Of a stretch of 64,000 nt of DNA, positions 7,579 through 52,397 are shown piece by piece. The stretch is from the NCBI GenBank assembly GCA_963700155.1, contig OY969472.1:517059-581058 (forward strand), written 5' to 3'. This DNA is from an uncultured bacterium (GTDB lineage: Bacteria > Patescibacteriota > Dojkabacteria > J137). Under the pieces are notes generated by a model. That model searched no databases. It was not told the DNA's origin and was given only the letters and a program-made list of their open reading frames with translations. Position 1 is the first letter of the stretch, and every line of letters starts with the position of its first letter. A program made the translations under genes and the position numbers.

Positions 7579-8010
7579 TTAAAAAGTCAAATCAAATACG
7601 ACCTCTGGTTTTGACTTCAAATCAGAATACCTTATCCATTTTGGATCTATCACAAACCATCTTTCATCTGGTAAATCAGCATAAACTTTCGATCCTGGAT
7701 TTTTTGTAATATGAATATTTTTAATTCTTTCAACATCATCTCCTTGAACTACATGTGCTTCACCTTCAAATTGAATTGTTATAAATTCATTAAAATCCCA
7801 ACCTAAAACAAATGATACTTTTGGATTTTTCATAAGATAAGAATATTTTCGAGTCTTATCTGAAGTTCCAAATATTATCTTTAAATCATCAGTCTCAGAA
7901 AATGCTAAAACAGCAGAAGTCGGTTGGTCACCATTCACTGTTGAAACAACACAAAGATCATGTGATTTTAGAAAATCTTTTATTAACTGAATCTGATCAG
8001 CCCTATCCAT
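7579..8010 (-). CDS. pyridoxamine 5'-phosphate oxidase-like FMN-binding split-barrel protein
   Basis: 143 aa. Pattern CVVSTVNGDQPTSAVLAF...FGTSDKTRKY..NPKVSFV is typical of the PNPOx-like family. Confidence 0.55.
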   Translation of the reverse strand: MDRADQIQLIKDFLKSHDLCVVSTVNGDQPTSAVLAFSETDDLKIIFGTSDKTRKYSYLMKNPKVSFVLGWDFNEFITIQFEGEAHVVQGDDVERIKNIHITKNPGSKVYADLPDERWFVIDPKWIRYSDLKSKPEVVFDLTF

Positions 8011-10983: not shown

Positions 10984-11513
10984 GAATTTATTTTATCATT
11001 TTCAACTTTTTCATTAATCTTTTTCATTCTATGTCTTATGAAAGGATTTATTGTTGATATGAATATTATTTCAATAATCAATGCCGAAACTGGTACAAGA
11101 ATGATTACAGAAGATTCAATTACTGATAATCTCATATAGATTACTAGGCCTATTACAGCTGTTATAAGCACGGCCCTTCTTATTGAATTATAAAGAGATG
11201 GTGCATCATAATAACTTTTAAAAAACAACTTATCTAAAAACAAATGAAGGGCCGTGCAAAAACTTAAGATTGCTGCAAGAAATACTCCAAATGCAAGGTA
11301 TGTAACGTTCGTTAAATACTGAAATATCAAACCTTTATCAACTATTCCTCTAATAACTTCATTTAGCTTATCCCAATCTCCGGGATTTATGGCATTAGAA
11401 GTAATAAGTTCGTTAATTTTATTCGCATCGAATGGCGAAAATTCTTTTAGAATATATATTAATATTAAGGTAAAGAATCCTCCTAAAATTGTAAAAATCA
11501 AAGCATTTTTCAT
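10980..11513 (-). CDS. hypothetical multi-pass membrane protein
   Basis: 177-aa hydrophobic ORF with a 4-nt overlap onto the downstream gene. Confidence 0.5.
   Translation of the reverse strand: MKNALIFTILGGFFTLILIYILKEFSPFDANKINELITSNAINPGDWDKLNEVIRGIVDKGLIFQYLTNVTYLAFGVFLAAILSFCTALHLFLDKLFFKSYYDAPSLYNSIRRAVLITAVIGLVIYMRLSVIESSVIILVPVSALIIEIIFISTINPFIRHRMKKINEKVENDKINS
11168..11257. repeat. 12-bp inverted repeat, 66-nt spacer, inside the membrane-protein gene
   Basis: GCACGGCCCTTC (11168-11179) / GAAGGGCCGTGC (11246-11257). Confidence 0.9.
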
Positions 11514-11607
11514 TATCTGTTATATGAAATGATATACTTAATTGCGATAAAAGGTTTATTTAAAACTAGCAATATTATACATTTTAATAACGATTACATC
11601 TTAAAAT

Positions 11608-12234
11608 ATGGGAGAAAATCTTGGCTGTACATCAATTGGTATTAGAGGGTTAGGGTGTATTATTATGCTTCTTTTTTTAGGATGCTGTTTTTTAACTTTA
11701 TATGTAATTATTAATAAACCAGTCACGTTATGGAATCCAGCTGTTGATATTTTAAACAATGGTTTTGTATATCCAAATTATCAAAAACAACTTTCTACTA
11801 CAATAGAGAGTGAGATTATTTCACAAATTAAAACCGTAGGTGAAAATGATGTATATATTTCAAATGATCAATTAACTTATCTTTTACAAGAAAAGTTGCC
11901 TCAATTTAACGATTTGGTATTTAAATCAGAAGATGGAGTTTTGAAAGCCTATTGGAAATTAGATCAAGGAGAGAAGCCTATTTTCGGAGAAGCAGACATT
12001 CAAGTCTTTGATAAAAATAACTTAGTTATTACAAGATTAGGTACACCTGCAGTAAAATTTCCTAGCGTAATGTATCCTGCAATAAATAATTTATTAGCAA
12101 TTTTTCTAAATCAAGACTTGGTAAAAAAACAATTCGAAAATTTTAAATTGAATGATAATCTAAGAATTGATGAAGTTAGTTTTCTAAAAGATAGGGTATA
12201 TTTGAGTGTAAATGTAGATGTGAAAATATTTTAA
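11608..12234 (+). CDS. hypothetical membrane-anchored protein
   Basis: 208 aa with an N-terminal TM segment. No motif recognised. Confidence 0.45.
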   Translation: MGENLGCTSIGIRGLGCIIMLLFLGCCFLTLYVIINKPVTLWNPAVDILNNGFVYPNYQKQLSTTIESEIISQIKTVGENDVYISNDQLTYLLQEKLPQFNDLVFKSEDGVLKAYWKLDQGEKPIFGEADIQVFDKNNLVITRLGTPAVKFPSVMYPAINNLLAIFLNQDLVKKQFENFKLNDNLRIDEVSFLKDRVYLSVNVDVKIF

Positions 12235-12235
12235 T

Positions 12236-13159
12236 ATGATAAAAGCATTTGTTGGAAACGATACTTACGATAGTTATATAAAAGCAAAGACAGAGGCTGA
12301 AAAACTTTCGAAATTAAAAAACTCTGAAGTTAAAACTATAGAAGTTGATGAAATAAATGAAGTCAATAATTTTCTAGAGCAGATAGAAGGAATAGACATG
12401 TTTAATCAAGGTTCAGTGATTTTTGCTAAAAGATTGTTGAATAATAAAAAAATTTCTGAGTATTTAACAGATAATTTCAAATCATTAGATAACTTCGATA
12501 TTGTTATCTGGCATGATAATAAACTAGACAGCAAATTAAGAATAGCAAAAGCACTAAAGAACAATGCTTCATTATTTATTTCCGATCTACCAAGAGAGAG
12601 AGAGTTTAACTATTGGATAAATGATCAATTTAAAATTGCAGGAATAAGATTATCAAGTAATCAATTAGAGTATATTTCTGAACACCTGGATAATGATAAA
12701 TGGATAATACTAAATGAATTGGAAAAGATAAAACTTTACTTAAAATCCAAAAAACAAACCATTTTATCTGGCGGTGATTTAAAAATGCTTTTAGGTTTTA
12801 ATATAAAAGGTGACATGTGGGGGTTTCTTGATGCTGTAGGGCAGAGAAATAAGAAAAAGTCTTTAGAAGAATTTGAAAAACTGGTTTTTTATGAAGATGT
12901 ATCTCAACTTATACTCGCTATGCTATTAAGAGAATTTAAACTTTTATCACAAGTTATTTATGCTAAAGAGATGAACTTACAAACTAGTATTTTAGGGATA
13001 AATCCATACGTTTTGAAAAAAACTTTAACAAAAAGCAGATACTTTACTTTCAATGAAATAAAAAATTTTATAAAAAAACTCTTCGATTTGGATCTTGCCA
13101 TTAAAAAGGGTGATATTGATGAAAAATTAGGTTTAACTTTATTTCTTTCAACACTATAA
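12236..13159 (+). CDS. holA: DNA polymerase III delta subunit-like (HolA)
   Basis: 307 aa. General HolA-like layout (N-terminal ..FVGNDTY.., helical C-terminal domains). Weak; recognised by pattern only. Confidence 0.45.
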   Translation: MIKAFVGNDTYDSYIKAKTEAEKLSKLKNSEVKTIEVDEINEVNNFLEQIEGIDMFNQGSVIFAKRLLNNKKISEYLTDNFKSLDNFDIVIWHDNKLDSKLRIAKALKNNASLFISDLPREREFNYWINDQFKIAGIRLSSNQLEYISEHLDNDKWIILNELEKIKLYLKSKKQTILSGGDLKMLLGFNIKGDMWGFLDAVGQRNKKKSLEEFEKLVFYEDVSQLILAMLLREFKLLSQVIYAKEMNLQTSILGINPYVLKKTLTKSRYFTFNEIKNFIKKLFDLDLAIKKGDIDEKLGLTLFLSTL

Positions 13160-13201
13160 ATTTTGATTTTTTAATCATCATCTTTAATGTAAAATGTCTT
13201 T

Positions 13202-14431
13202 ATGTACAAAATTAATATGCGAAAAAAAATATTAATAAGCTTTATCTTTTTACAAGTTATTTTAATATTAGGCTCAGGTTTTGTAAGTGCTGATGATATT
13301 CAAAGCTTATCCACTCTTAATATTGACACTTCTATCACAGTAAAAGATACTACTGGTTTTGGAGATCCCACACAGATTATTGTTACTCCTGTTTTTATTA
13401 ATAATGGAACAGAAGTAAACACAGATAAATGGGTTAGAGGTATTTATTATTACACTATCGATAAATTAGGATTTCAAAACATTCCTTTTCATTATTTAAT
13501 TACAGAAGATGGTGGAGTTTTTAAAGGTAACAGCTCAGGTGATGAGAAAAAAATTAACATAGAAGGAATTGGCGATAATGCAGTTGTAGTTGGATATTTA
13601 AGTACAGATGAGGCGGGCGCTATAGCGCCCGCCTCAGAACAACCATTATCAAATCTGCTGCTAAATATAGCTAATCAAGATTCTATAAATCCTGAAAATA
13701 TATCAGCAAGTGGAATAAATTTTATTAAAGATAGTTCAAGCAATACAATAACAATTCAAAAAGCTAAAGTTGGGAGTGAGTGGAGTATAGGTATTAATAA
13801 AATTGTAAATAATATTAAAAATAAGTATTCTCCAATTACAAAAAAATATAGCGTTGAAATAACTCAGGTTACATTACCAACAAACGAAATAACACCTGGT
13901 GATGAAGCTACAGTCTCGATTAAAATAAAAAATACTGGTAAGAATGGATTTTATAGTGGTGCTAATTCTGAAATACTTTTAACAAAAGATAATGGAATTT
14001 CCAGCAACTTCTATATAAATAATACATGGCTCAGCCAAACTCAAACTGGAATAATGTCAGATGGTATATCTCTTCTCCCAGGTGAAGAAAAAGGGTTTGA
14101 TTTTAAAGTCAAAGCTCCACTGGCAACCGGAGATTATTCAGAAAACTTTATTTTGAAAACTGCAGGTGGAACTACTATAAAAAGTAACAAAAATATTGAG
14201 TTAAAAATTAAGTTAAAAAAAACTAATAAACAAATTATTGAGATAAAAACAAGCTATGATTATGTAAATGTAAGAAGCAAACCTTATGATTCAGCCCCTG
14301 TTTTAAGAAAAGTTACTGCAGGAGAAAGATATTTCCTTCTAGATCTAAATGAAGATACCCTTTGGGCAAAAATTGACTTAGGGGGTGGAGTAGAAGGTTA
14401 CCTTCCCGCTTGGGATTTGAAATATATTTAA
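13202..14431 (+). CDS. secreted cell-wall-associated protein: amidase_2/PGRP-like N-domain, Ig-like middle domain, C-terminal SH3b
   Basis: Signal/TM N-terminus. IPFHYLITEDGGVFKGN resembles amidase_2. C-terminal VNVRSKPYDSAPVLRKVTAGERYFLL..WAKI is SH3b-like. Confidence 0.5.
   Translation: MYKINMRKKILISFIFLQVILILGSGFVSADDIQSLSTLNIDTSITVKDTTGFGDPTQIIVTPVFINNGTEVNTDKWVRGIYYYTIDKLGFQNIPFHYLITEDGGVFKGNSSGDEKKINIEGIGDNAVVVGYLSTDEAGAIAPASEQPLSNLLLNIANQDSINPENISASGINFIKDSSSNTITIQKAKVGSEWSIGINKIVNNIKNKYSPITKKYSVEITQVTLPTNEITPGDEATVSIKIKNTGKNGFYSGANSEILLTKDNGISSNFYINNTWLSQTQTGIMSDGISLLPGEEKGFDFKVKAPLATGDYSENFILKTAGGTTIKSNKNIELKIKLKKTNKQIIEIKTSYDYVNVRSKPYDSAPVLRKVTAGERYFLLDLNEDTLWAKIDLGGGVEGYLPAWDLKYI
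13609..13636. repeat. 28-bp perfect GC-rich palindrome inside the amidase-like/SH3b gene
   Basis: TGAGGCGGGCGCTATAGCGCCCGCCTCA. Encodes ..DEAGAIAPASE.. Confidence 0.95.
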
Positions 14432-14442
14432 TAAAATTCTAA

Positions 14443-15930
14443 ATGCCAAAGGTAAAAATAATACTAATTATTGTTTTTGTGCTTTCTTTTTTTGTTAGTT
14501 TATTGCTTTTTCTAAAGTTTAATACTGTTGGATTTGAACAATCATTTAGGGCATATTTGGCATGGTATAACCCGACTGATGATAATTTAAAAAATTTCTA
14601 TGATATTTCGACTAGTCAAAATTTTTTATCTTCATTAAATTTTGAAAATCAGACTTTTAAAAACGGGACTGAATTGTTTGATTTCTTAAGGAATGAACAA
14701 AAGACAAACAATTCAGTCCCCGCAGTAGCTAAAGATAATCGAGACAGCAAAGTTCCAATTCAATTTGATGAAGAGAATATTGACGATACAAACCTTCCTC
14801 AGAAAATTACTTATGTATCACCTGGAGTTCTTGGATACTATGTATATAATTATGATCTAGTAAGATTCTCTCCTGATAAAAATACTCTTGAAAGCAAATA
14901 TTTAAATTTAAAAGAGAGTACTATTGATCCTATTTCAAAAAAGAATGTTACTGGTACAAAAGATTTAAAAACAGCAAAGACAGAAGTTAATAGTTATTTT
15001 AATAAACTTATAACTGATGTTGGCAATACAAACACATATGATGGCTTAACAAAAGAGAGTTTTAAAAAACTTGAAAACCACGAGGTTCTTGAAAATATTT
15101 CAGTTAATTCAATAAATTTTGTTGAAAAGAACTTTAAAGAAACTGAATTAAAAGATAACAAATTAATTATTGGAACGATAAATATTCACTTAGAAAACTG
15201 TTTTAAAGATTTTTCAGAAGATTTGAGTTTTTCTATCAATACCGGTGACATTCAAATTAATGACTTAAATGATTTTGTAAGTAACTTATGTAAAAAGCAA
15301 TTCGTTAAAGTTAATGGGGTAATTACCGGAACTTGTACTGATTGTACTTATTATCCAGCTGATAAATGGCATGCTTTAAGATCTGACTATACTCCCAAAA
15401 CTCAATTGATTGATTTCGCTCCGGGAGGACAATATATTAATACACAAGCATATAACGACTTTAAAGATTTATACAACGCAGCAAAAGCAGATGGAATATA
15501 TATTTATGTAACTTCAGGCTATCGTTCTTACAATACTCAAGTTGCGACATATCAAGGCTGGGTAAACACTGAACTTGCTGCTGGTTATTCTTTGTCTGAG
15601 GCAGAAGCTATTGCTAATACTTATTCAGCTCTTCCTGGGTACTCAGAGCACCAGCTTGGAACAGCGTTAGATTTAAATGGAGCAGGATGTGAAATTTCTG
15701 ATGGATATTGTTCAACAAACGAAACAATCTGGAACTGGCTTGCGGAAAATGCTTATAAATATGGGTTTGCACAATCATACCCTGAAGGAAAAGAGTCAAT
15801 TACAGGATATACCACCGAAAGGTGGCATTACAGGTGGATTGGGAAAGACTTAGCTGAAGAATATAAAAAAGCTGGAGGAGGAACAAAAATTACTTTAAAT
15901 GTATTTTTATTGAATAAAGGATTATATTAA
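14443..15930 (+). CDS. D-alanyl-D-alanine carboxypeptidase, peptidase M15B (VanY-like), membrane-anchored
   Basis: N-terminal TM. C-terminal SGYRSYNTQ, GYSEHQLGTALDL, ERWHYRW zinc-site motifs. Confidence 0.8.
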   Translation: MPKVKIILIIVFVLSFFVSLLLFLKFNTVGFEQSFRAYLAWYNPTDDNLKNFYDISTSQNFLSSLNFENQTFKNGTELFDFLRNEQKTNNSVPAVAKDNRDSKVPIQFDEENIDDTNLPQKITYVSPGVLGYYVYNYDLVRFSPDKNTLESKYLNLKESTIDPISKKNVTGTKDLKTAKTEVNSYFNKLITDVGNTNTYDGLTKESFKKLENHEVLENISVNSINFVEKNFKETELKDNKLIIGTINIHLENCFKDFSEDLSFSINTGDIQINDLNDFVSNLCKKQFVKVNGVITGTCTDCTYYPADKWHALRSDYTPKTQLIDFAPGGQYINTQAYNDFKDLYNAAKADGIYIYVTSGYRSYNTQVATYQGWVNTELAAGYSLSEAEAIANTYSALPGYSEHQLGTALDLNGAGCEISDGYCSTNETIWNWLAENAYKYGFAQSYPEGKESITGYTTERWHYRWIGKDLAEEYKKAGGGTKITLNVFLLNKGLY

Positions 15931-16388
15931 ATTTCGGATTGAACTCTTTGTTTTGCAATTCCAATTATTGCTTTATATGCAAGATAATGTACTGTACCAT
16001 CGTCTAGTAAAACCCCAGCTTCAATTAATTCTTTTATTTCATCATCAGTTATTTGAATACTTTTTGGACTTAGAGCAATAGCTTCAAGTTTTGAATAGAG
16101 ATCTTTATTATTTGCATTCAACATTAATATATCAGCCTCAAGAGATATCTGTGTTTCATTTAAAGCCGCTTGTACTAAATTCCTTGCTTTAGTTGTAAGT
16201 ATAAAAATACCAAGCTTTTCTTGGAGAAAACCAAAAGAAACTAATTTCTCTCCTAATTCTTTTTCTATATGAACAGGTGATTCTGGTAGCCGTCTTGAAG
16301 CTCTTATTACCAACTTATAAACATCTGGAAATTCATCTTCTAAAGATTCAAAAATTGCCAATATACTTTTTTCACGATAATTATCCAT
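15927..16388 (-). CDS. hypothetical protein; paralog of the upstream 88-aa ORF
   Basis: EFPDVYKLVIR / LVSFGFLQEKLGIFILTTKA match ETPEVYRILVR / LERLGVIVLNNGIYELTEGA of ORF 16399-16665. Confidence 0.5.
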   Translation of the reverse strand: MDNYREKSILAIFESLEDEFPDVYKLVIRASRRLPESPVHIEKELGEKLVSFGFLQEKLGIFILTTKARNLVQAALNETQISLEADILMLNANNKDLYSKLEAIALSPKSIQITDDEIKELIEAGVLLDDGTVHYLAYKAIIGIAKQRVQSEI

Positions 16389-40695: not shown

Positions 40696-41625
40696 ATGAA
40701 AATTTTTATGGCTTCATTAAAACATCAACTTAGTAGGTTTAAAACTATAATTATAATTTTAGTCATCGTCGTAATATTACTAGTCATAATACTAGTTAGA
40801 AGATCAAACACACCAATACTAGACCCGTCATTAAATATTGAGACTGTTCAGGTTAGAAACGTACAAAATGTTGTAACAGCGGAAGGTAATTTACATGCGA
40901 ATGATGAAAGATTTGTTTATCTTCCATCTCTTTCTAAGGTAACATCTATAAAAGTTTCAGTAAATGACAAGGTTTCAAAAGATGATGTTTTGGCAGAAGT
41001 TGAAAGTACAAATCAATTAGGAAGTACAACGACTACTGAAATTAAATCTCCAATAAAAGGAACTGTTGTCCAAATTGGATATAAAGAAAATGATATTGCC
41101 AATGCTTCATCAGTCGGCTTTGAAATTGCAGATTTATCTTCATATAAGGTAATCGTATATATCAATGAAACTGATATTCCGAATATTAAAAATAAGCAAA
41201 GTGCTAAGATTAATTTTCCTGCTATTTCATTAGATGACTTATACGATGCAAAAATAACTTTTGTCTCACCCTCACCTATTGATTCAAGTGGTGTTGTAAA
41301 TTATGAAGTTGATCTCTCACCTTCAAAACTTCCTAGTGGAATAAAGCTTGGAATGTCTGTTGATGTAGATATAACAACAGCGGAGGTCGATAATGTTCTC
41401 GCAATTCCAGAAACATATTTAATTGAAAAAGATAATAAAAATTATGTAAAACTTTTAACTTGGACAAATGATCAAAAAACCCAATACGATATATCTGAAG
41501 TTGAAATAACAGTTGGATTAAAAACAAATGAATACGTTGAAGTAAAATCTGGTTTGAAACAAGGAGATGAAATTGTTGAACCATCGTATGTAGCTAAATC
41601 TGGGCTAGGTATTTTCGGTAATTAA
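40696..41625 (+). CDS. efflux-transporter periplasmic adaptor (HlyD/MacA-like)
   Basis: N-terminal TM, lipoyl-like ..VSKDDVLAEVES..IKSPIKGTV.., beta-barrel region. Lies upstream of the MacB-type ABC pair. Confidence 0.65.
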   Translation: MKIFMASLKHQLSRFKTIIIILVIVVILLVIILVRRSNTPILDPSLNIETVQVRNVQNVVTAEGNLHANDERFVYLPSLSKVTSIKVSVNDKVSKDDVLAEVESTNQLGSTTTTEIKSPIKGTVVQIGYKENDIANASSVGFEIADLSSYKVIVYINETDIPNIKNKQSAKINFPAISLDDLYDAKITFVSPSPIDSSGVVNYEVDLSPSKLPSGIKLGMSVDVDITTAEVDNVLAIPETYLIEKDNKNYVKLLTWTNDQKTQYDISEVEITVGLKTNEYVEVKSGLKQGDEIVEPSYVAKSGLGIFGN

Positions 41626-41638
41626 TATATATAGAATT

Positions 41639-42343
41639 ATGGAACTTCCGGGAAAAATCGAAAAAAGAATAGATGAAAAGGAGTTGATTGAATTAAGAAA
41701 TATTACTAAAAGCTATAATATTGACAAAGAAAATGAATTCAAGGCACTTAAAGGCATTGATTTAAGAATAAATAAAGGTGAATTTGTAGCAATAATGGGG
41801 CCTTCAGGTTCTGGAAAAACTACCTTAATGAATATTTTAGGTGCATTGGATGTACCAACTTCGGGACATTATCTAATCTACGGAAAAGATATAAGTAAGT
41901 ATACGCAAAATCAACTTGCAGATTTTAGAAATAAAGATGTTGGATTTGTATTTCAACAATTTAATCTTCTTCCAAGAAGAAATGTTCGTGATAATGTTAT
42001 TCTTCCAACTTTATATGGATTTATTCCAGATAAAGAGAAAAAATTATTAGAAGTTATTGAAAAAGTAGGTTTAAGAGATAAGCTGTTAAATAAACCAAAC
42101 GAGCTTTCCGGTGGACAAATACAAAGAGTTGCAATAGCTAGGGCTTTGATGATGTCACCTTCAATTATTATGGCTGATGAGCCTACTGGGAATTTAGATA
42201 CTAAGACCTCAATGGAGATTATGGAGATATTCAAAAGCATTAACGATGAAGGAAATACGATTATTTTAATTACTCATGAAGATGATATTGCTGCATATGC
42301 AAAACGTATAATACATATTAAAGATGGAGAAATAGTTAAATAA
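41639..42343 (+). CDS. ABC transporter ATP-binding protein (MacB/LolD family)
   Basis: Walker A GPSGSGKTT, signature LSGGQIQR, Walker B IIMADEPTGNLD, H-loop ITHE. Confidence 0.9.
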   Translation: MELPGKIEKRIDEKELIELRNITKSYNIDKENEFKALKGIDLRINKGEFVAIMGPSGSGKTTLMNILGALDVPTSGHYLIYGKDISKYTQNQLADFRNKDVGFVFQQFNLLPRRNVRDNVILPTLYGFIPDKEKKLLEVIEKVGLRDKLLNKPNELSGGQIQRVAIARALMMSPSIIMADEPTGNLDTKTSMEIMEIFKSINDEGNTIILITHEDDIAAYAKRIIHIKDGEIVK

Positions 42344-42348
42344 TAATC

Positions 42349-43566
42349 ATGTCATTAAATGAAATTCTTAAAATATCAATAAATTCAATACTTTCAAATA
42401 AAGTAAGAGCATTTTTAACAATGCTTGGAATTATTATTGGAATAGCAGCTGTGATTGCACTTTTATCACTAGGACAAGGTGCTCAAAGTTCAATTTTACA
42501 ACAGGTAGAAGGTTTAGGGTCTAACACTTTAACGATAGTTCCTGTGGCAAATTTCAGTGGTTTTACTAGCAGATCTAGTTTCGAAGGATTTGTAAATAAT
42601 AAAATAGATTATAAAGTATTGAAGGTGTTAGAAAATCCAGTAACTTTTAGTGAAATTGAAGCAATTTCACCTGAGGCAGGGAAATCAATGAGTGTTAGTT
42701 ATCGATCAAAAGGTGGATCCTATACAGTTGAAGGTGTTGAAGAAACTTTTTTTGATGTGAGAGGAGTAAATATTAATTCGGGGAGGCAAATTACAAAAAA
42801 TGATAATCAAACCTTAGCAAAAGTTGCAATTTTAGGACCTAGTGTATATCAAAAATTGTTTGGTGAAAGTGATCCTATAGATAAAGATATCAAAATTGAT
42901 GGGAAAGTATTTAGGGTAATTGGAGTTGCAGAATCAAAAGGAGCGCAGTTAGATAATAATATCGAAGTCCCATTGAATACAGCGACGAGTTTGCTTTTAG
43001 GAAATAAAAATCTTTCACAGATTGTAGTTAAAGTTAAAGATGAGAACCAGATTGATCAAGTTTCAGGAAAAATAGATACAGAATTTAGAAAATTTTTTAA
43101 ATTACACCAAAATGATGAGGCTAACTATTCAATATTTAGTTCAAAGGACGTTGCGACATTAGCCGAAACTGTAACAGGCATTTTTACGACCTTGCTTTCA
43201 AGCATTGCAAGTATTTCATTAATAGTTGGTGGTATTGGGATTATGAATATTATGCTGGTTTCAGTTACTGAAAGGACAAAAGAGATTGGTTTAAGAAAAG
43301 CTGTTGGAGCGAAACAAAGGGTTATTCTTTGGCAATTCGTTATTGAAGCTGTTGTTCTAACAGTTATTGGAGGGCTGATTGGCATTATATTTGGCTTGAG
43401 TTTAGCATTTATTGTCGGGCACTTTGGGAATATCCCAATTGTTATATCGTTAGGTTCAATAGCATTAGCAACTTCAGTCTCAGCAACAATAGGTATAGTA
43501 TTCGGCTTTTATCCAGCGTACAGGGCTTCAAGATTAAATCCGATTGATGCTTTACGATATGAATAA
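42349..43566 (+). CDS. ABC transporter permease (MacB-type, FtsX domain)
   Basis: N-terminal TM, large periplasmic domain, C-terminal FtsX motif RTKEIGLRKAVGA..YPAYRASRLNPIDALRYE. Confidence 0.85.
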   Translation: MSLNEILKISINSILSNKVRAFLTMLGIIIGIAAVIALLSLGQGAQSSILQQVEGLGSNTLTIVPVANFSGFTSRSSFEGFVNNKIDYKVLKVLENPVTFSEIEAISPEAGKSMSVSYRSKGGSYTVEGVEETFFDVRGVNINSGRQITKNDNQTLAKVAILGPSVYQKLFGESDPIDKDIKIDGKVFRVIGVAESKGAQLDNNIEVPLNTATSLLLGNKNLSQIVVKVKDENQIDQVSGKIDTEFRKFFKLHQNDEANYSIFSSKDVATLAETVTGIFTTLLSSIASISLIVGGIGIMNIMLVSVTERTKEIGLRKAVGAKQRVILWQFVIEAVVLTVIGGLIGIIFGLSLAFIVGHFGNIPIVISLGSIALATSVSATIGIVFGFYPAYRASRLNPIDALRYE

Positions 43567-47810: not shown

Positions 47811-48800
47811 TTACTGATTTAGGTTTAAGTTAACCCAAGTATTAAAGACATCTAAGGAATTATTTTTTGGATCAATTAACCCAGTGGTTTTAAAGGGTTT
47901 AGGATAATTATTTGAGTCATACAAAAATGGCCAGATAATGAATTTCATATGTAATGATTTTGATAAATTCGGGATCATCTCTACATACTTGATTTGTTCT
48001 TCTGCAGAACTTTCCCATCCAGAAATTCCTTCATCTTTAAACCATGCAGTTTCTGTAATTGCAATTGGCTTATCTGTTTTTGCAGAAATAACGCTCCAAT
48101 AATCTGAAGGAATTTCTGACGGATCTTTATAAATTAATCCTGGATAAGTTGTAAATGCTAAAAAATCAGCATTATCAAATTTTGATAATATTTCCCATTG
48201 TGTTTTTGTTTCATCATTTACTCCACCAAATAATCCGCCGTTTAAGCCTTTAAGATTTTCATATTGAAACACTGTGAATATCTGAGTCTCAGGACTTGTT
48301 GTTTTTACTAATTCATAAAGCTGGTTAAACCATGTGCTGAATCTATCTAAGTCACCTGATAACTCTTTATTAATTTCATTTCCGAATCCAAGATATTTAG
48401 GATTATATGTTTTCACAAATTGAACAATTGCTTTGTTATATTCATTTTCTTGTATAAGTGAAGGGATCTCTTTAACACCGATAATAATTACCGGGGTTAA
48501 GTTGTATGAAGGAGCGGCTTTCATTAAGAAAGCCGCTCCTGAGTTCTCATCTAAAATGTCAGAAATATTTCCTGCCCAAGATACTACTTTGCAGCATTCT
48601 TTTGTTTTTGTAAAGAAATCGTCAATTCCAGATTGACTATAATCATTAGGTGATAAACTAAGTCCTTTTTGAGTTGATTCTGAAGTATTTTGAACTAAAT
48701 TTGAATTTCTGCTATTTAAGAATAATCCAATTATTAAAACAATAATTAGACTAACAACAAGGATTCCAATAAAGATTGAGATTAATAATTTCTTATTCAT
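47811..48800 (-). CDS. membrane-anchored clan GH-A (TIM-barrel) glycoside hydrolase-like protein
   Basis: FGNEINKE (acid/base NE) and ITETAW (nucleophile E) motifs. I moved the start to MNKKLL (48800) because the ORF-track start at 48902 runs into tRNA-Arg. Confidence 0.5.
   Translation of the reverse strand: MNKKLLISIFIGILVVSLIIVLIIGLFLNSRNSNLVQNTSESTQKGLSLSPNDYSQSGIDDFFTKTKECCKVVSWAGNISDILDENSGAAFLMKAAPSYNLTPVIIIGVKEIPSLIQENEYNKAIVQFVKTYNPKYLGFGNEINKELSGDLDRFSTWFNQLYELVKTTSPETQIFTVFQYENLKGLNGGLFGGVNDETKTQWEILSKFDNADFLAFTTYPGLIYKDPSEIPSDYWSVISAKTDKPIAITETAWFKDEGISGWESSAEEQIKYVEMIPNLSKSLHMKFIIWPFLYDSNNYPKPFKTTGLIDPKNNSLDVFNTWVNLNLNQ
48510..48540. repeat. 13-bp perfect hairpin with a 5-nt loop, inside the GH-A-like gene
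   Basis: AGGAGCGGCTTTC-ATTAA-GAAAGCCGCTCCT. Confidence 0.95.
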
Positions 48801-48887
48801 TTTAGAAAATATGATACTACTAACTATACTCAGTGTGATCTTTAAGATCAAACTTTCACAATGGTATAATCTTTTTGCAGTATTTAT

Positions 48888-48961
48888 GTACCCATAGCTC
48901 AACTGGATAGAGCACTACTTTGCGGAAGTAGCGGTTGGAGGTTCGACCCCTCTTGGGTACA
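48888..48961 (+). tRNA. tRNA-Arg (anticodon GCG)
   Basis: Hand-folded cloverleaf: acceptor GUACCCA/UGGGUAC, D arm GCUC..GAGC, anticodon stem CUACU/AGUAG with loop UUGCGGA, T arm GGAGG-UUCGACC-CCUCU. CCA is not encoded. Confidence 0.85.
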
Positions 48962-49049
48962 GTTAAGCTTCTGTATCTCCTTAAATATTAAAAATTCCAA
49001 CATATCATATTATAAATGTTAAAATTTTTTAAATATTACACATCTGAAA

Positions 49050-49475
49050 ATGAGAATTGCAGTAATTGATGATAAACCTGATGATAATACAAAATGTATT
49101 TTAAAATTATTATTCAATCGAATAGGAGAAGATGTGGAATTTGTTGAAGCTGTCACTATTACTGAGGCGGAAGAATTGACAAGACAGATTTTGGATGGAC
49201 AAGTTGGAGTTGATTTTATAATTTGCGATAGAGAAATGGATAAGTCTAACTCTAAATTAACAGCAACAAAATTTGCGCGACAATTAAAGGAAAGAAATTT
49301 CCCAGTCATAACCTGGAGCTATGGTATTAATCCGATGCATCAAGATGCTGGTCATTATTTTGTAAATAAATTAAACTTTACAGATTGGTGTGAGTTTTTA
49401 ATTACTCAAGAGTTCTTAGATAAACTATCTGAATTAAAAAGTTTGAGAGAAAATAATGAAGTTAAATTTAATTAA
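49050..49475 (+). CDS. stand-alone response-regulator receiver domain (CheY-like)
   Basis: VIDDKPDD, phospho-acceptor-like FIICDREMD, ITWSYG, FVNKL. No output domain and no adjacent kinase. Confidence 0.6.
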   Translation: MRIAVIDDKPDDNTKCILKLLFNRIGEDVEFVEAVTITEAEELTRQILDGQVGVDFIICDREMDKSNSKLTATKFARQLKERNFPVITWSYGINPMHQDAGHYFVNKLNFTDWCEFLITQEFLDKLSELKSLRENNEVKFN

Positions 49476-49521
49476 TGTCAAAACCACTAACAAACACAAA
49501 AATAAAAGCACTAAATAAAGA
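49474..49521 (+). repeat. 48-bp direct repeat, copy 1 (duplicate of the SpoU/TrmH gene 5' end)
   Basis: AATGTCAAAACCACTAACAAACACAAAAATAAAAGCACTAAATAAAGA is identical to 51243-51290. Confidence 0.95.
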
Positions 49522-49528
49522 TGAATAA
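49475..49528 (+). pseudogene. 17-codon remnant of the SpoU/TrmH N-terminus (MSKPLTNTKIKALNKDE*)
   Basis: The first 15 codons are identical to 51244-51288. Its ATG overlaps the receiver-gene TAA (TAATG). Confidence 0.6.
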
Positions 49529-50252
49529 TCAAGAATTTCTAGAAAAAGATTTTGATTTAAAATATCTTAACATCGCACAATCTAATATCTTAGTGCGTAG
49601 AACACTTGATTTGATAAAATTACATAGAAATTCTCAAGTTTTTATTCTACTTGCTTACAGTGCTTCGCCATTCGAAATCTTAATAAGAAATTTGTGGAAG
49701 AAAGCATATCCTTATATTCAAATTCCCCAATTTATTCATCTTAATATAGGACATAAAACATCAATTGCAATGAGATTAAATGATAAAAGCTCTATAACTG
49801 ATATTGTAGATTATCAATCAAGATATTACTTAGAAGATGAGCTAAAAGATGTAAAGAATGTAACATTTGTTGATGATGTCTCTTATACTGGAGAAACAGA
49901 AGAACTGGTAAGAAACCTTATCAATTTTATCGATTCAAAGATAAATTCTAGTTATTTCCCTTTTATTCATGGTTCCTTATCTGGGTCACCAAGTACTGAA
50001 GAAATAGCTTTCTGGAATGATGATGAAGACTTTTCATCTAGAATTTTTATGCCTTGGAAGAAAAAAACACAGTTTGGTAGTACTAATTATGTTAATTGGT
50101 CCCCAATGGAAGATAGGAAGTATATTTTAAGTCATCAACCTGACTCGACTGATACTGAAAAATACGGGGTTGCTTCGGAAATAGAAGTAGAGTTAGAGAA
50201 AATTTCAAACTTATTAGATACAAATTTGGTTAAAAAATATTTATCTAGTTAA
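49521..50252 (+). CDS. phosphoribosyltransferase-like protein
   Basis: PRPP-binding-type motif VTFVDDVSYTGETEELV. The rest is unrecognised. Confidence 0.45.
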   Translation: MNNQEFLEKDFDLKYLNIAQSNILVRRTLDLIKLHRNSQVFILLAYSASPFEILIRNLWKKAYPYIQIPQFIHLNIGHKTSIAMRLNDKSSITDIVDYQSRYYLEDELKDVKNVTFVDDVSYTGETEELVRNLINFIDSKINSSYFPFIHGSLSGSPSTEEIAFWNDDEDFSSRIFMPWKKKTQFGSTNYVNWSPMEDRKYILSHQPDSTDTEKYGVASEIEVELEKISNLLDTNLVKKYLSS

Positions 50253-51241
50253 TGCCATTTATTATGATAAAAGCAGAAAGCTCCTCACCTGGAAAGTTAA
50301 TATTAGCCGGAGAGCATGTTGTTTTGTATGGTTATAAAGCATTAGCATTTCCTATTAATAAAAATACAAAAGTATTAGTTCAAGATTCTAACCATGAAAA
50401 TACAATAAAAATATATCTAAAAAATTTTAATAAAATTCTTCAAGTTACAAAAAGTAGAGTCCATAGAATCAATCTTAAAGATAAGAATACTTTAATAACT
50501 CTAAGGACCCTAAAGTTTTTCTTTGAAAGATTTCATGTAGATATTAATAACGGATTGGATTTATTTGTAAATTCTCAGATCCCTATTGGGGGATTTGGAT
50601 CTTCAACTTCTGTAAGTGCTTCAATTCTTAAAGCGTTTTTCAAAATGTTTAATATTGAAGTTAAAGATAAAGATCTTATAGATTATGTAATAGAGATTGA
50701 ATCTATTAATGGAATAAAGGTTAGCGGATTAGATCAGACAGTTATAGTTGAAAATTCTCCAATCTCTTTCATAAAAAAAGGAGAAATAAATTCATACAAA
50801 AAGATTTATCCCAAAAATAAATATATTAAAAATTGCGTAATAATAGATACGGGAAGACCAAATGAAGTTACAGGAGAAGTCGTAAAATTTATTAAGGAAC
50901 AGTATAATTCTGATTATAGAAATATCAAAATTGTATTTGATAATATTGGTAAGTATTGTTCAATTCTTGAAAGATTCGTTCAAGAGAGTGATACTTTGCA
51001 AATTCTAGATATTATTAGTTCCATTGGAGAAGAGCTAGTGAAATTAAAAATAGTTACTCCTTATTGTCAAGATATAATATCGGATTTAAAAAAACTTGGT
51101 GCAAGTTCAAAAATTTCCGGTGCTGGTGCTATCACTGGTAATGGATGCGGAGCTTTAATATGTTTTACAAATAATACTAGTCCAGTTATTAAATATTTAG
51201 ATTCAAGAAACATTAAATATTTTATTACTAACCTATTTTAA
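50252..51241 (+). CDS. GHMP-family kinase (mevalonate-kinase-like)
   Basis: SPGKLILAGEHVVLYGYKALAFPI, motif II PIGGFGSSTSVSAS, VSGLDQ, motif III KISGAGAITGNGCGA. Confidence 0.75.
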   Translation: MPFIMIKAESSSPGKLILAGEHVVLYGYKALAFPINKNTKVLVQDSNHENTIKIYLKNFNKILQVTKSRVHRINLKDKNTLITLRTLKFFFERFHVDINNGLDLFVNSQIPIGGFGSSTSVSASILKAFFKMFNIEVKDKDLIDYVIEIESINGIKVSGLDQTVIVENSPISFIKKGEINSYKKIYPKNKYIKNCVIIDTGRPNEVTGEVVKFIKEQYNSDYRNIKIVFDNIGKYCSILERFVQESDTLQILDIISSIGEELVKLKIVTPYCQDIISDLKKLGASSKISGAGAITGNGCGALICFTNNTSPVIKYLDSRNIKYFITNLF

Positions 51242-51242
51242 G

Positions 51243-51290
51243 AATGTCAAAACCACTAACAAACACAAAAATAAAAGCACTAAATAAAGA
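51243..51290 (+). repeat. 48-bp direct repeat, copy 2 (native 5' end of the SpoU/TrmH gene)
   Basis: Identical to 49474-49521. Confidence 0.95.
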
Positions 51291-51774
51291 ATTTTCAAAA
51301 AATATTCCACAAGATTTGGAACTAATTTTTATACTTCAAGATGTAGAAGATCCATATAATGTCGGAAGCATATTTAGAACTGCTGATGCTTGTGGAGCTG
51401 GAATAATATTAACTGGAAATACACCAACTCCAGGAAAAACTCCTGAAATTTCAAAAAATTCTATGGGAATGGAGCGGAAAGTAGATTGGCAGTATTATGA
51501 AAATATTGAAGAAGTAATCGGGAGTTTAAAACAAAATGGTTTTGATATTGTAGGAATAGAAGTTACAGAAGATGCTGTGTCATACGATGAATATGCTTAC
51601 AAACGCAGAACTGCATTAGTACTGGGGAATGAAGCCATTGGGATTTATAAGAAAAATCTGGGCCTTTGCAATAAAATTGTATACATTCCAATGCTGGGCA
51701 AAGGCCCCTCTCTCAACGTAAATATAGCCGGAGCTATTGTAGGGTATGAGATAATTAGTAAGAATAAATCTTAA
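51244..51774 (+). CDS. SpoU/TrmH-family RNA 2'-O-methyltransferase
   Basis: DPYNVGSIFRTADACGA, LVLGNEAIGI, IPMLGKGPSLNVNIAGAIVGYEI. Confidence 0.85.
   Translation: MSKPLTNTKIKALNKEFSKNIPQDLELIFILQDVEDPYNVGSIFRTADACGAGIILTGNTPTPGKTPEISKNSMGMERKVDWQYYENIEEVIGSLKQNGFDIVGIEVTEDAVSYDEYAYKRRTALVLGNEAIGIYKKNLGLCNKIVYIPMLGKGPSLNVNIAGAIVGYEIISKNKS
51660..51707. repeat. 10-bp inverted repeat, 28-nt spacer, inside the SpoU/TrmH gene
   Basis: GGGCCTTTGC (51660-51669) / GCAAAGGCCC (51698-51707). Confidence 0.9.
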
Positions 51775-51784
51775 TCAATTAATA

Positions 51785-52252
51785 ATGGCTTTAATCGATA
51801 ATCCGCCTGGGAGTTATGAAGCATATAGAAGTGATCTATTAGTCCAAAGATATGAGTTGATTCGAAGGCTTAAAGAACTTAGAGATAAAAGCTATGCTCC
51901 TTCAAAGATTTTAAATTTATTAATAACTAGTCTTTCAGTATTTGTAAAAGATGAGGAACTAATGTCTCGAGATGAGCTAGTAAATTTTCATAAATCATAT
52001 TCGAACGAAGGTTGGGTTGCAGCTTATGTAGAATTATATGTAAAGTTAAGAGTATTGCGTATGAATCTACAGGCTAGGGGATTTCCTTTTAACGTAGAAT
52101 CTGATCTAAGAAAAACTATTGCAGAGTTGATAAAAAGCTCGACTAATACTCCAACACCTAGAACTCGTAACTTTTTCAGGGAGTATAAGCAAAGTTTAGA
52201 TAGTTTATATAAATTAGTGATAATGATCCCAAGAAATTATGATGAGATTTAA
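51785..52252 (+). CDS. hypothetical protein
   Basis: 155-aa helical ORF. Confidence 0.4.
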   Translation: MALIDNPPGSYEAYRSDLLVQRYELIRRLKELRDKSYAPSKILNLLITSLSVFVKDEELMSRDELVNFHKSYSNEGWVAAYVELYVKLRVLRMNLQARGFPFNVESDLRKTIAELIKSSTNTPTPRTRNFFREYKQSLDSLYKLVIMIPRNYDEI

Positions 52253-52277
52253 TAATCAGGTATAATTCATAGCACAT

Positions 52278-52363
52278 GGAGGGTTGCTGGAGTGGTCTAA
52301 CAGGCCCGTCTCGAAAACGGGAATCCAGAAATGGATACACAGGTTCAAATCCTGTACCCTCCG
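52278..52363 (+). tRNA. tRNA-Ser (anticodon CGA), long variable arm
   Basis: Acceptor GGAGGGU/ACCCUCC, anticodon stem CCCGU/ACGGG with loop CUCGAAA, variable arm AUCCAGAAAUGGAU, T arm ACAGG-UUCAAAU-CCUGU. Confidence 0.85.
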
Positions 52364-52397
52364 AATAAATCTTACCTGAATAAATATTCTTTATTTG

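Follow-up and report, generated by a model that had tools for sequence, protein, structure and literature searches.

A perfect 48-bp duplication of the spoU gene start around a phosphoribosyltransferase-like and GHMP kinase gene pair in a variable slot of a Dojkabacteria chromosome

In the minimal mobile elements of Neisseria, alternative cargo is located between conserved flanking genes and is swapped by homologous recombination. Homology-facilitated illegitimate recombination has been described for transformation in Acinetobacter and Streptococcus pneumoniae, and its usual outcome is an insertion together with a deletion in the recipient. Campbell-type insertion-duplication, as used in suicide-plasmid mutagenesis, leaves a truncated 5′ fragment, the inserted DNA and a complete target gene. 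The locus described here recalls each of these. It lies in a 64,000-nucleotide stretch of contig OY969472.1 (hereafter the window), which comes from an uncultured bacterium of the Dojkabacteria. In this window, the 5′ end of spoU, the gene for a SpoU/TrmH-family RNA 2′-O-methyltransferase, is repeated exactly on either side of a unit of two genes that code for a phosphoribosyltransferase (PRTase)-like protein and a GHMP kinase. We consider it probable, though well short of certain, that the window holds two alternative contents of one chromosomal slot, ORF141–spoU and PRTase-like–GHMP kinase–spoU, that were merged by a single event of host recombination.

The two enzymes also have described relatives. 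The gPRT domains of Ribf-transferases are accompanied by a HAD phosphatase, which is a defining feature of these enzymes (PMC11127046). In the CriT domain, the vicinal aspartates (DD) of the nucleobase PRTases are replaced by D680 and E818, which are located on separate loops (PMC10299916). Enzymes of the mevalonate pathway have been reported in the candidate phyla radiation (CPR), including dojkabacteria (PMC6107057).

The repeated spoU 5′ end and the variable slot

Nucleotides 49474–49521 and 51243–51290 of the window are identical at 48 of 48 positions and form a direct repeat with a spacing of 1,769 bp. A search with the 48-nt sequence, allowing three mismatches, found only these two sites in the window and none in 100 dinucleotide-preserving shuffles, and no other exact direct repeat of at least 28 nt is present within the 64 kb. 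The downstream copy is the 5′ end of the intact spoU gene (51244–51774; this and all other features are on the + strand unless indicated), whose product matched PF00588 above the threshold and over nearly the whole profile (E 2.4e-34, 118.9 bits, profile positions 2–142 of 142). The upstream copy is found in the native context of a small open reading frame (ORF), ORF141 (49050–49475). The stop codon of ORF141 (TAA, 49473–49475) and the ATG of the copy (49475–49477) overlap as TAATG, and from this ATG a spoU remnant of 17 codons, MSKPLTNTKIKALNKDE, is read until a stop codon at 49526–49528 (the remnant covers 49475–49528). The last base of the upstream copy is at the same time the A of the ATG (49521–49523) that starts the PRTase-like gene (49521–50252, 243 amino acids). 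At this joint, 49521|49522, codon 16 of spoU meets the PRTase-like start codon, and the last 8 nt of the remnant overlap the start of the PRTase-like gene. The PRTase-like stop codon and the start codon of the GHMP kinase gene (50252–51241, 329 amino acids) share 1 nt, again as TAATG. The exact repeat, the TAATG overlap and the 17-codon remnant had all been pointed out in an earlier note made from the letters of this stretch, and they are confirmed here.

The junctions were compared with raw-read data. Logan unitigs (k = 31) of the run ERR11571143 matched the window exactly and ended k−1, i.e., 30 nt, into the repeat on both sides: unitig L001 corresponds to 49492–51272 of the window and unitig L094 ends at 49503. 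Since the unitigs reach 30 nt into the repeat, all junction k-mers, including those of the joint between the truncated spoU (spoU′) and the PRTase-like gene, are present in the reads. An integrated unit and a circle accompanied by an empty site look alike in a graph with k = 31.

SpoU orthologs placed the lineage as a Dojkabacteria/WS6-like member of the CPR, and the orthologs in four related loci (L002, L003, L009 and L011) are 69–74% identical to the SpoU of the window. The left anchor of the slot is a tRNA-Arg(GCG) gene (48887–48962; ARAGORN; Rfam tRNA, 61 bits), which precedes the slot in L002, L003, L004 and L009 as well. The right anchor is spoU, and a tRNA-Ser(CGA) gene (52277–52364; ARAGORN and Rfam) is a conserved landmark further downstream. 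A wider synteny, consisting of ArgRS, a Wzy_C-like gene, a transglutaminase-like gene and UvrD, is common to the relatives. Between tRNA-Arg(GCG) and spoU, the window, L002, L003, L004 and L009 have five different contents. In L003 (SpoU 74% identical), the order is tRNA-Arg, a 77-amino acid ORF on the − strand, ORF137, TAATG, spoU and tRNA-Ser, and there is no PRTase–kinase module. In L002 (69%), tRNA-Arg is followed by the PRTase-like gene, the GHMP kinase gene, TAATG, spoU and tRNA-Ser, without ORF141 and without the repeat. The slot holds an unrelated ORF, ORF132, in L009/L010 (72%) and a PdaC/DUF3298 gene in L004/L005 (56%). This stretch is a chromosomal slot with varying content, anchored by tRNA-Arg and spoU, and whatever genes fill it in a given relative, they run right up to the spoU start codon. 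No flanking repeats were found at L003, L004 or L009.

The earlier note had proposed an ancestral junction in which a gene like ORF141 was coupled to spoU, and had regarded an arrangement shared by all relatives, with diverged repeats, as the sign of an old duplication. The proposed junction exists in L003, where ORF137 is joined to an intact spoU by the same TAATG. The L003 junction, GAAGTAAGATTTAATTAATGCC, is visibly orthologous to that of the window, GAAGTTAAATTTAATTAATGTC, and the upstream 48-bp copy has its ortholog at 7980–8048 of L003. The shared arrangement was not what the relatives carry: L002 and L003 each have a single arrangement. No conspecific genomes were present in the collections searched, and a scan of metagenomes for SpoU returned only three loci, at 43–44% identity.

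Origin of the double arrangement

The joint at 49521|49522 is the single non-native junction of the locus, because all its other junctions are matched in L002 or L003. The N-terminus of the PRTase-like protein aligns from residue 1 with that of P0002, its closest homolog. One novel joint combined with one duplicated stretch of homology is what a single event leaves behind. The age of this event can be bounded by the repeat itself. The orthologous 48 nt differ from the window sequence at 7 (L003), 8 (L009) or 12 (L002 and L011) positions, in comparison to none between the two copies in the window, and an identity of 48 out of 48 limits their divergence to less than about 6% at the 5% level. Therefore, the join, or the last homogenisation of the copies, was recent. 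As the copies are identical, the donor and the recipient had the same spoU 5′ end and were thus conspecific. Judged from the sequence, the left edge of the repeat is the point where the homology of the ORF141–spoU and GHMP kinase–spoU junctions starts (AATG), and its right edge is the illegitimate joint.

A mechanism consistent with these features would use the spoU 5′ end as shared homology in one recombination event and would make one illegitimate joint, that of spoU codon 16 to the PRTase-like start codon. A fragment consisting of the spoU 5′ end, the PRTase-like gene and the GHMP kinase gene may have circularised and been inserted by a single, Campbell-type crossover with duplication of the homology. 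Alternatively, an unequal crossover between the two arrangements may have occurred, anchored by homology at one end and illegitimate at the other. Both routes would give the same product. The event would be recent, driven by the host and not by an element-encoded recombinase, and the spoU sequences involved would have been nearly identical and conspecific. The unbroken chain of overlapping stop and start codons that runs through ORF141, the remnant, the PRTase-like gene, the GHMP kinase gene and spoU may be the reason why the joint at the PRTase-like start codon was kept. Its survival may be due to the fact that the merged operon keeps this chain and has no internal terminator on the + strand. 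Terminator predictions on the + strand were indeed absent between tRNA-Arg and tRNA-Ser; the promoter and terminator scans performed at the level of chance expectation and were used only for this absence. The repeats should also permit precise RecA-type excision back to ORF141–spoU.

The earlier note had taken the PRTase–kinase unit to be the later insertion, a direction that the comparison does not support, since ORF141 with spoU′ may equally be the incoming part. The proposal that ORF141 alone is the newcomer and the module is ancestral was dropped because L003 shows that the ORF141–spoU junction is native too, and for the same reason the direction of the event is undecidable.

A Campbell-type integration of a circle sharing an att-like sequence with the chromosome had also been suggested. 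Insertion-duplication by a single crossover stands as a valid route, but the unit has no att-like site of its own: the module of L002 lies without any repeat, and direct repeats around the module were also lacking in L008, L014 and L015, three further loci that carry it. A site-specific mobile cassette, with the 48 bp as att-like core, integration at the spoU 5′ end and a recombinase encoded elsewhere, would account for a discrete two-gene unit between perfect direct repeats. The slot adjoins a tRNA gene, a classic neighbourhood for integration, and the occurrence of the module in distant lineages and in both gene orders suggests horizontal spread. We nonetheless regard such a cassette as very improbable. 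The earlier note had already remarked that the unit has no integrase or transposase, and no recombinase or transposase was detected by Pfam among the unit and the ORFs scanned from about 40.7 to 61.7 kb, which leaves none within about 8 kb. In L002, the module occupies the same place with no second copy of the spoU 5′ end, and the supposed att site is the mere start of a gene common to both arrangements. A transposon or insertion sequence is not indicated either, as there is no transposase, the repeat scan found no terminal inverted repeats at the ends of the unit, and the duplication consists of 48 bp at a gene start. A phage origin found no support in a search of PHROGs, which gave no meaningful matches, or in a scan of viral contigs, which gave none at all. 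Host recombination is the best reading, rather than a self-mobile att element.

Two other explanations leave the mobile element aside. The duplication could be old, with an ancestor that had ORF141–spoU′–PRTase–GHMP kinase–spoU, an L003 group that lost the module by recombination between the repeats, an L002 lineage that lost ORF141 and the remnant, and gene conversion keeping the copies identical. The two native junctions are found in lineages at roughly the same distance from the window (74% and 69% SpoU identity), which a shared ancestor explains simply; a deletion mediated by the repeats yields exactly the L003 state, and the composition of the module is fully host-like. However, we consider this history unlikely, because even in sequence constrained by coding the 48 nt vary from lineage to lineage at 7–12 positions, yet in the window the copies are identical with sharp edges, and the upstream one is a non-coding remnant with no evident constraint. 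In addition, gene conversion over a stretch as short as 48 bp would be in competition with loss of the module by deletion, and no trace of a remnant is left upstream of the PRTase-like gene of L002. It is more doubtful still that the linear assembly is not what the cells carry, i.e., that the chromosome has ORF141–spoU and the 1,769-bp unit is a separate circle, or a form present in a subpopulation, that the assembler threaded in. The two forms are indistinguishable in the k = 31 graph, in which L001 and L094 break exactly at the repeat, and excision would be possible between direct repeats of 48 bp. Against this, the spoU′|PRTase-like joint is contained in the raw-read unitig L001, which shows that real molecules link the unit to the 5′ sequence of spoU. 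Moreover, the source is a single 1.14-Mb contig, reads of at least 100 nt span a 48-bp repeat that a modern assembler would normally resolve, and a 1.77-kb circle without a replication function could not persist. The merger of two slot contents by host recombination is the reading that we retain.

The identity of ORF141 was also addressed. The earlier note had called it a stand-alone receiver, which was not confirmed. A word-based search returned only ORF141 itself, and its one ortholog is ORF137 of L003 (40% identity, E 1e-29). ORF141 had no Pfam match, and ORF137 reached Response_reg (PF00072) at E 0.06 with 14 bits, below the cut-off of 30.2. A profile built from the two sequences gave nothing significant against the PDB. 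Residues D7, D8, D60, T88/S90 and K107 are kept in both proteins at receiver-like spacing, a motif pattern that comes from two sequences only, and ORF141 is best described as a small protein with a receiver-like motif pattern and an unconfirmed family. Two other identities were rejected. A degenerate serine recombinase was suggested by the best PDB match (3g13, E 0.24), but the catalytic Ser and Arg are absent and the profile did not recover the match. A diverged duplicate of the PRTase-like gene was suggested by a 33-nt DNA match of 76%, but BLASTP gave E 0.25 and no significant similarity.

Other features of the neighbourhood were recorded. ORF155 (51785–52252), located between spoU and tRNA-Ser, is an orphan with no Pfam, NCBIfam or PADLOC match and no counterpart in L002, L003, L004, L009 or L011. 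Those loci have other genes or a tRNA directly after spoU, and ORF155 is thus a second variable piece of the block. A search of the locus for riboswitches and noncoding RNAs with Rfam gave nothing beyond the two tRNAs and, far below the threshold, a match to RAGATH-12 upstream of tRNA-Arg (48749–48819, − strand; 25.8 bits in comparison to a gathering score of 75, E 0.031), probably by chance. A mechanically called ORF on the − strand (47811–48902, TTG start, 363 amino acids) extends into the tRNA-Arg gene. The same gene has 329 amino acids on a Logan unitig, and its true start is probably further downstream. Upstream of ArgRS, genes for an HlyD-like membrane-fusion protein, an ABC ATPase and a MacB/FtsX permease (40696–43566) form an apparent efflux operon. 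In L003, the closest relative, about 3 kb downstream of tRNA-Ser(CGA), there is a prophage-like block (11442–16069, − strand) with a large serine recombinase (Resolvase, Recombinase and Zn_ribbon_recom), a terminase-like gene and a ParB_N/N6_N4 methyltransferase. Nothing comparable is present in the window.

The PRTase-like protein and its kinase partner

The PRTase-like protein of the window has no Pfam or NCBIfam match. Among 5.8 billion proteins, one close homolog was found, P0002, with 48% identity. A HMMER search of 1.84 billion representative proteins recovered 35 relatives at E up to 0.001. The alignment of this 36-member family has the conserved motifs FLDKSARP, FLNIG.EK, (L/I)VDD....G.T and PW. 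The loop that binds phosphoribosyl pyrophosphate (PRPP), VTFVDDVSYTGET, occupies residues 114–126, and its D118 and G124 are conserved in at least 90% of the family. Pfam Pribosyltran (PF00156) was reached by 6 of the 36 members (best E 2.4e-6). The family profile matched solved purine PRTases in the PDB, the best being 4z1o (E 8.7e-10). A first AlphaFold2 model, made from two sequences, had a predicted local distance difference test score (pLDDT) of 53.6 and was too poor to use, but the model made with the family alignment was confident (pLDDT 84.9, predicted template modelling score 0.85). Foldseek matched this model, weakly, to HGPRT and PyrR, and the predicted structure has a PRT fold. Thus, the assignment made in the earlier note holds at the levels of profile and structure, while Pfam and NCBIfam miss the protein itself. 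A scan of genome contigs with the two-sequence PRTase alignment gave no matches. The locus L098 (1–683) includes a PRTase-like gene, P0069, which seems to have lost part of its N-terminus and has an in-frame stop immediately before it; decay of the copy or an error in the assembly may be the cause.

The predicted model was best superposed on gPRT enzymes (gPRT/CriT; 7shg and 8a0c), with 199 residues aligned, including the helical extensions. Unlike gPRT/CriT, the PRTase-like protein keeps the vicinal DD, is paired with a GHMP kinase and has no HAD partner, and it does not belong with those enzymes. The retention of the vicinal DD and the lack of a HAD partner point to a PRT-fold enzyme of a new family. 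The protein is predicted to be a PRPP-binding phosphoribosyltransferase of a new family that no curated family covers.

The assignment of the second gene product as a GHMP kinase was corroborated by a match to GHMP_kinases_N (E 1.2e-11). Against TIGR00549 (mevalonate kinase), it scored 138 bits, below the equivalog cut-off of 163. Every one of its top relatives in the PDB is a mevalonate kinase (1kkh, E 3e-26). The catalytic motifs (Lys and Glu-His of motif I, the Ser-rich motif II, the Glu and the Asp base, and motif III) are invariant in the kinases paired with a PRTase-like gene and are conserved in at least 96% of 78 other kinases. Neighbour joining of 83 kinases grouped the five paired ones in a single clade (bootstrap 288/300). 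The sister of this clade (282/300) is the kinase of WS6 bacterium OLB20 (L045), whose gene is located directly downstream of a mevalonate diphosphate decarboxylase-like gene, a canonical pathway context. A nucleoside 2-deoxyribosyltransferase-like gene lies just before this decarboxylase–kinase pair (region 4046–6954 of L045). Unlike in L045, the scanned or pre-annotated neighbours of the module in its six contexts included no mevalonate-pathway gene. As indicated by its sequence, the kinase of the module appears to be a catalytically intact paralog of mevalonate kinase that split off from the mevalonate kinase of the lineage. The earlier note had found a lone mevalonate kinase homolog odd in a genome that looks reduced, but such a homolog is not odd in a lineage reported to have the mevalonate pathway, as also exemplified by the decarboxylase–kinase operon of L045. 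The unusual part is a paralogous kinase clade locked to a PRTase.

The PRTase-like gene adjoins and overlaps a GHMP kinase gene in 6 of 6 informative contexts of the subfamily, in both gene orders and with overlaps of 1–11 nt. The PRTase-like gene comes first in the window (overlap 1 nt, locus GC content 0.30), L002 (1 nt, 0.32), L007 (11 nt, 0.32) and L014 (11 nt, 0.31), and the kinase gene comes first in L008 (4 nt, 0.48) and L015 (4 nt, 0.43). In L007, the kinase neighbour is a fragment that starts with MDSSLILAKKHYNGKVILTGEH and carries the GHMP motif I. L014 is from a Dojkabacteria metagenome-assembled genome. Among 80 mevalonate kinase-like loci from species-representative genomes, a PRTase-like neighbour was present only in L014 and L015 and in none of the 78 others. 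Two members of a more distant FLDKSARP branch are unpaired. The pair is a rare, conserved and co-inherited enzyme module. No description of a pairing of PRTase and GHMP kinase was found, in line with the earlier note, which did not recognise it as a known pathway module.

The reversed order of L008 (233–5711) and L015 (4736–7572) occurs on contigs of higher GC content (0.43–0.48), one of which was binned as Pseudomonadales. In both, the module is preceded by a gene for a PAS-domain sensor protein, and in L008 also by DUF444. These contexts suggest spread across phyla and possibly regulated expression. Two other ideas about the module were discarded. A foreign composition was not seen, as the GC content, the GC content at third codon positions and the codon usage of both genes are within the host range. 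An anti-phage defence module was not substantiated: PADLOC had no match for the kinase and, for its partner, matched just the PRPP loop to the PRTase_III-A model of retrons, at 18.5 bits. There was no context of a retron reverse transcriptase or noncoding RNA.

Most likely, the two enzymes act in sequence on one small metabolite, with a phosphorylation and a phosphoribosylation from PRPP. A bolder and rather doubtful proposal is that the pair catalyses an undescribed PRPP-dependent reaction, for example, an O-phosphoribosylation whose acceptor, mevalonate-like or with another hydroxyl or phosphate group, is either made by the kinase or modified by it afterwards. In CPR and a few other lineages, this could yield a ribosylated metabolite or an envelope precursor that is new, and in this genome the repeats would make the module a reversible on/off insertion that host recombination can loop out.

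Comparison with known systems

As in the Neisseria minimal mobile elements, conserved anchors surround cargo that differs from one genome to another (an ORF141 homolog, ORF132, the PdaC-like gene or the PRTase–GHMP kinase pair), and the ordinary state has neither recombinase nor repeats. In contrast to those elements, the variation described here is among relatives at the level of genera and not among strains of one species, and the window shows an additive merger and not a replacement. With Campbell-type insertion-duplication the locus shares the order of truncated 5′ fragment, inserted DNA and complete target gene, a duplicated segment that equals the homology of the insert, one joint that closes the circle, and independence from an element-encoded recombinase. 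It differs in that the event would be natural, with a homology of 48 bp only and no vector or replicon, and in that the circular intermediate is purely hypothetical. Homology-facilitated illegitimate recombination likewise has one end anchored by homology, in this case spoU, and the other at little or no microhomology, in this case 1 nt or more, and it adds foreign genes beside a conserved anchor without the machinery of a mobile element. Whereas a deletion in the recipient usually goes with it, here recipient sequence was duplicated. The window provides an unusually clean natural case of a streamlined CPR genome, poor in mobile elements, that reshuffles its gene content. The scar of the merger, a gene start duplicated perfectly over 48 bp, has been preserved intact, and this state predicts precise reversibility.

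The enzymes can be placed in the same manner. The PRTase-like protein shares with the purine PRTases (4z1o and HGPRT) the Rossmann-like PRT core and the PRPP loop, with the vicinal DD followed by TG.T, and with those of the Gpt type the conserved PW after the last core strand, but it has long N- and C-terminal helices that the purine enzymes lack. The kinase has the hallmarks of mevalonate kinase, namely motif I (GK.IL.GEH), motif II (GGFGSS), the catalytic E and SG.D, and motif III. It differs in that the paired clade has GGF instead of GGL at motif II and NG..VSG.DQ beside the catalytic Asp. The module is rare, with six gene-paired instances in all. The resemblance of its PRTase to enzymes that use PRPP to ribosylate hydroxyl acceptors, and the split of its kinase from the mevalonate kinase of the lineage, make the module a specific candidate for new chemistry with PRPP in organisms with a poorly understood metabolism. 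In comparison with what has been described, the architecture of the locus adds a further instance of known recombination outcomes, and the enzyme pair is a new variation on enzymes of known kinds.

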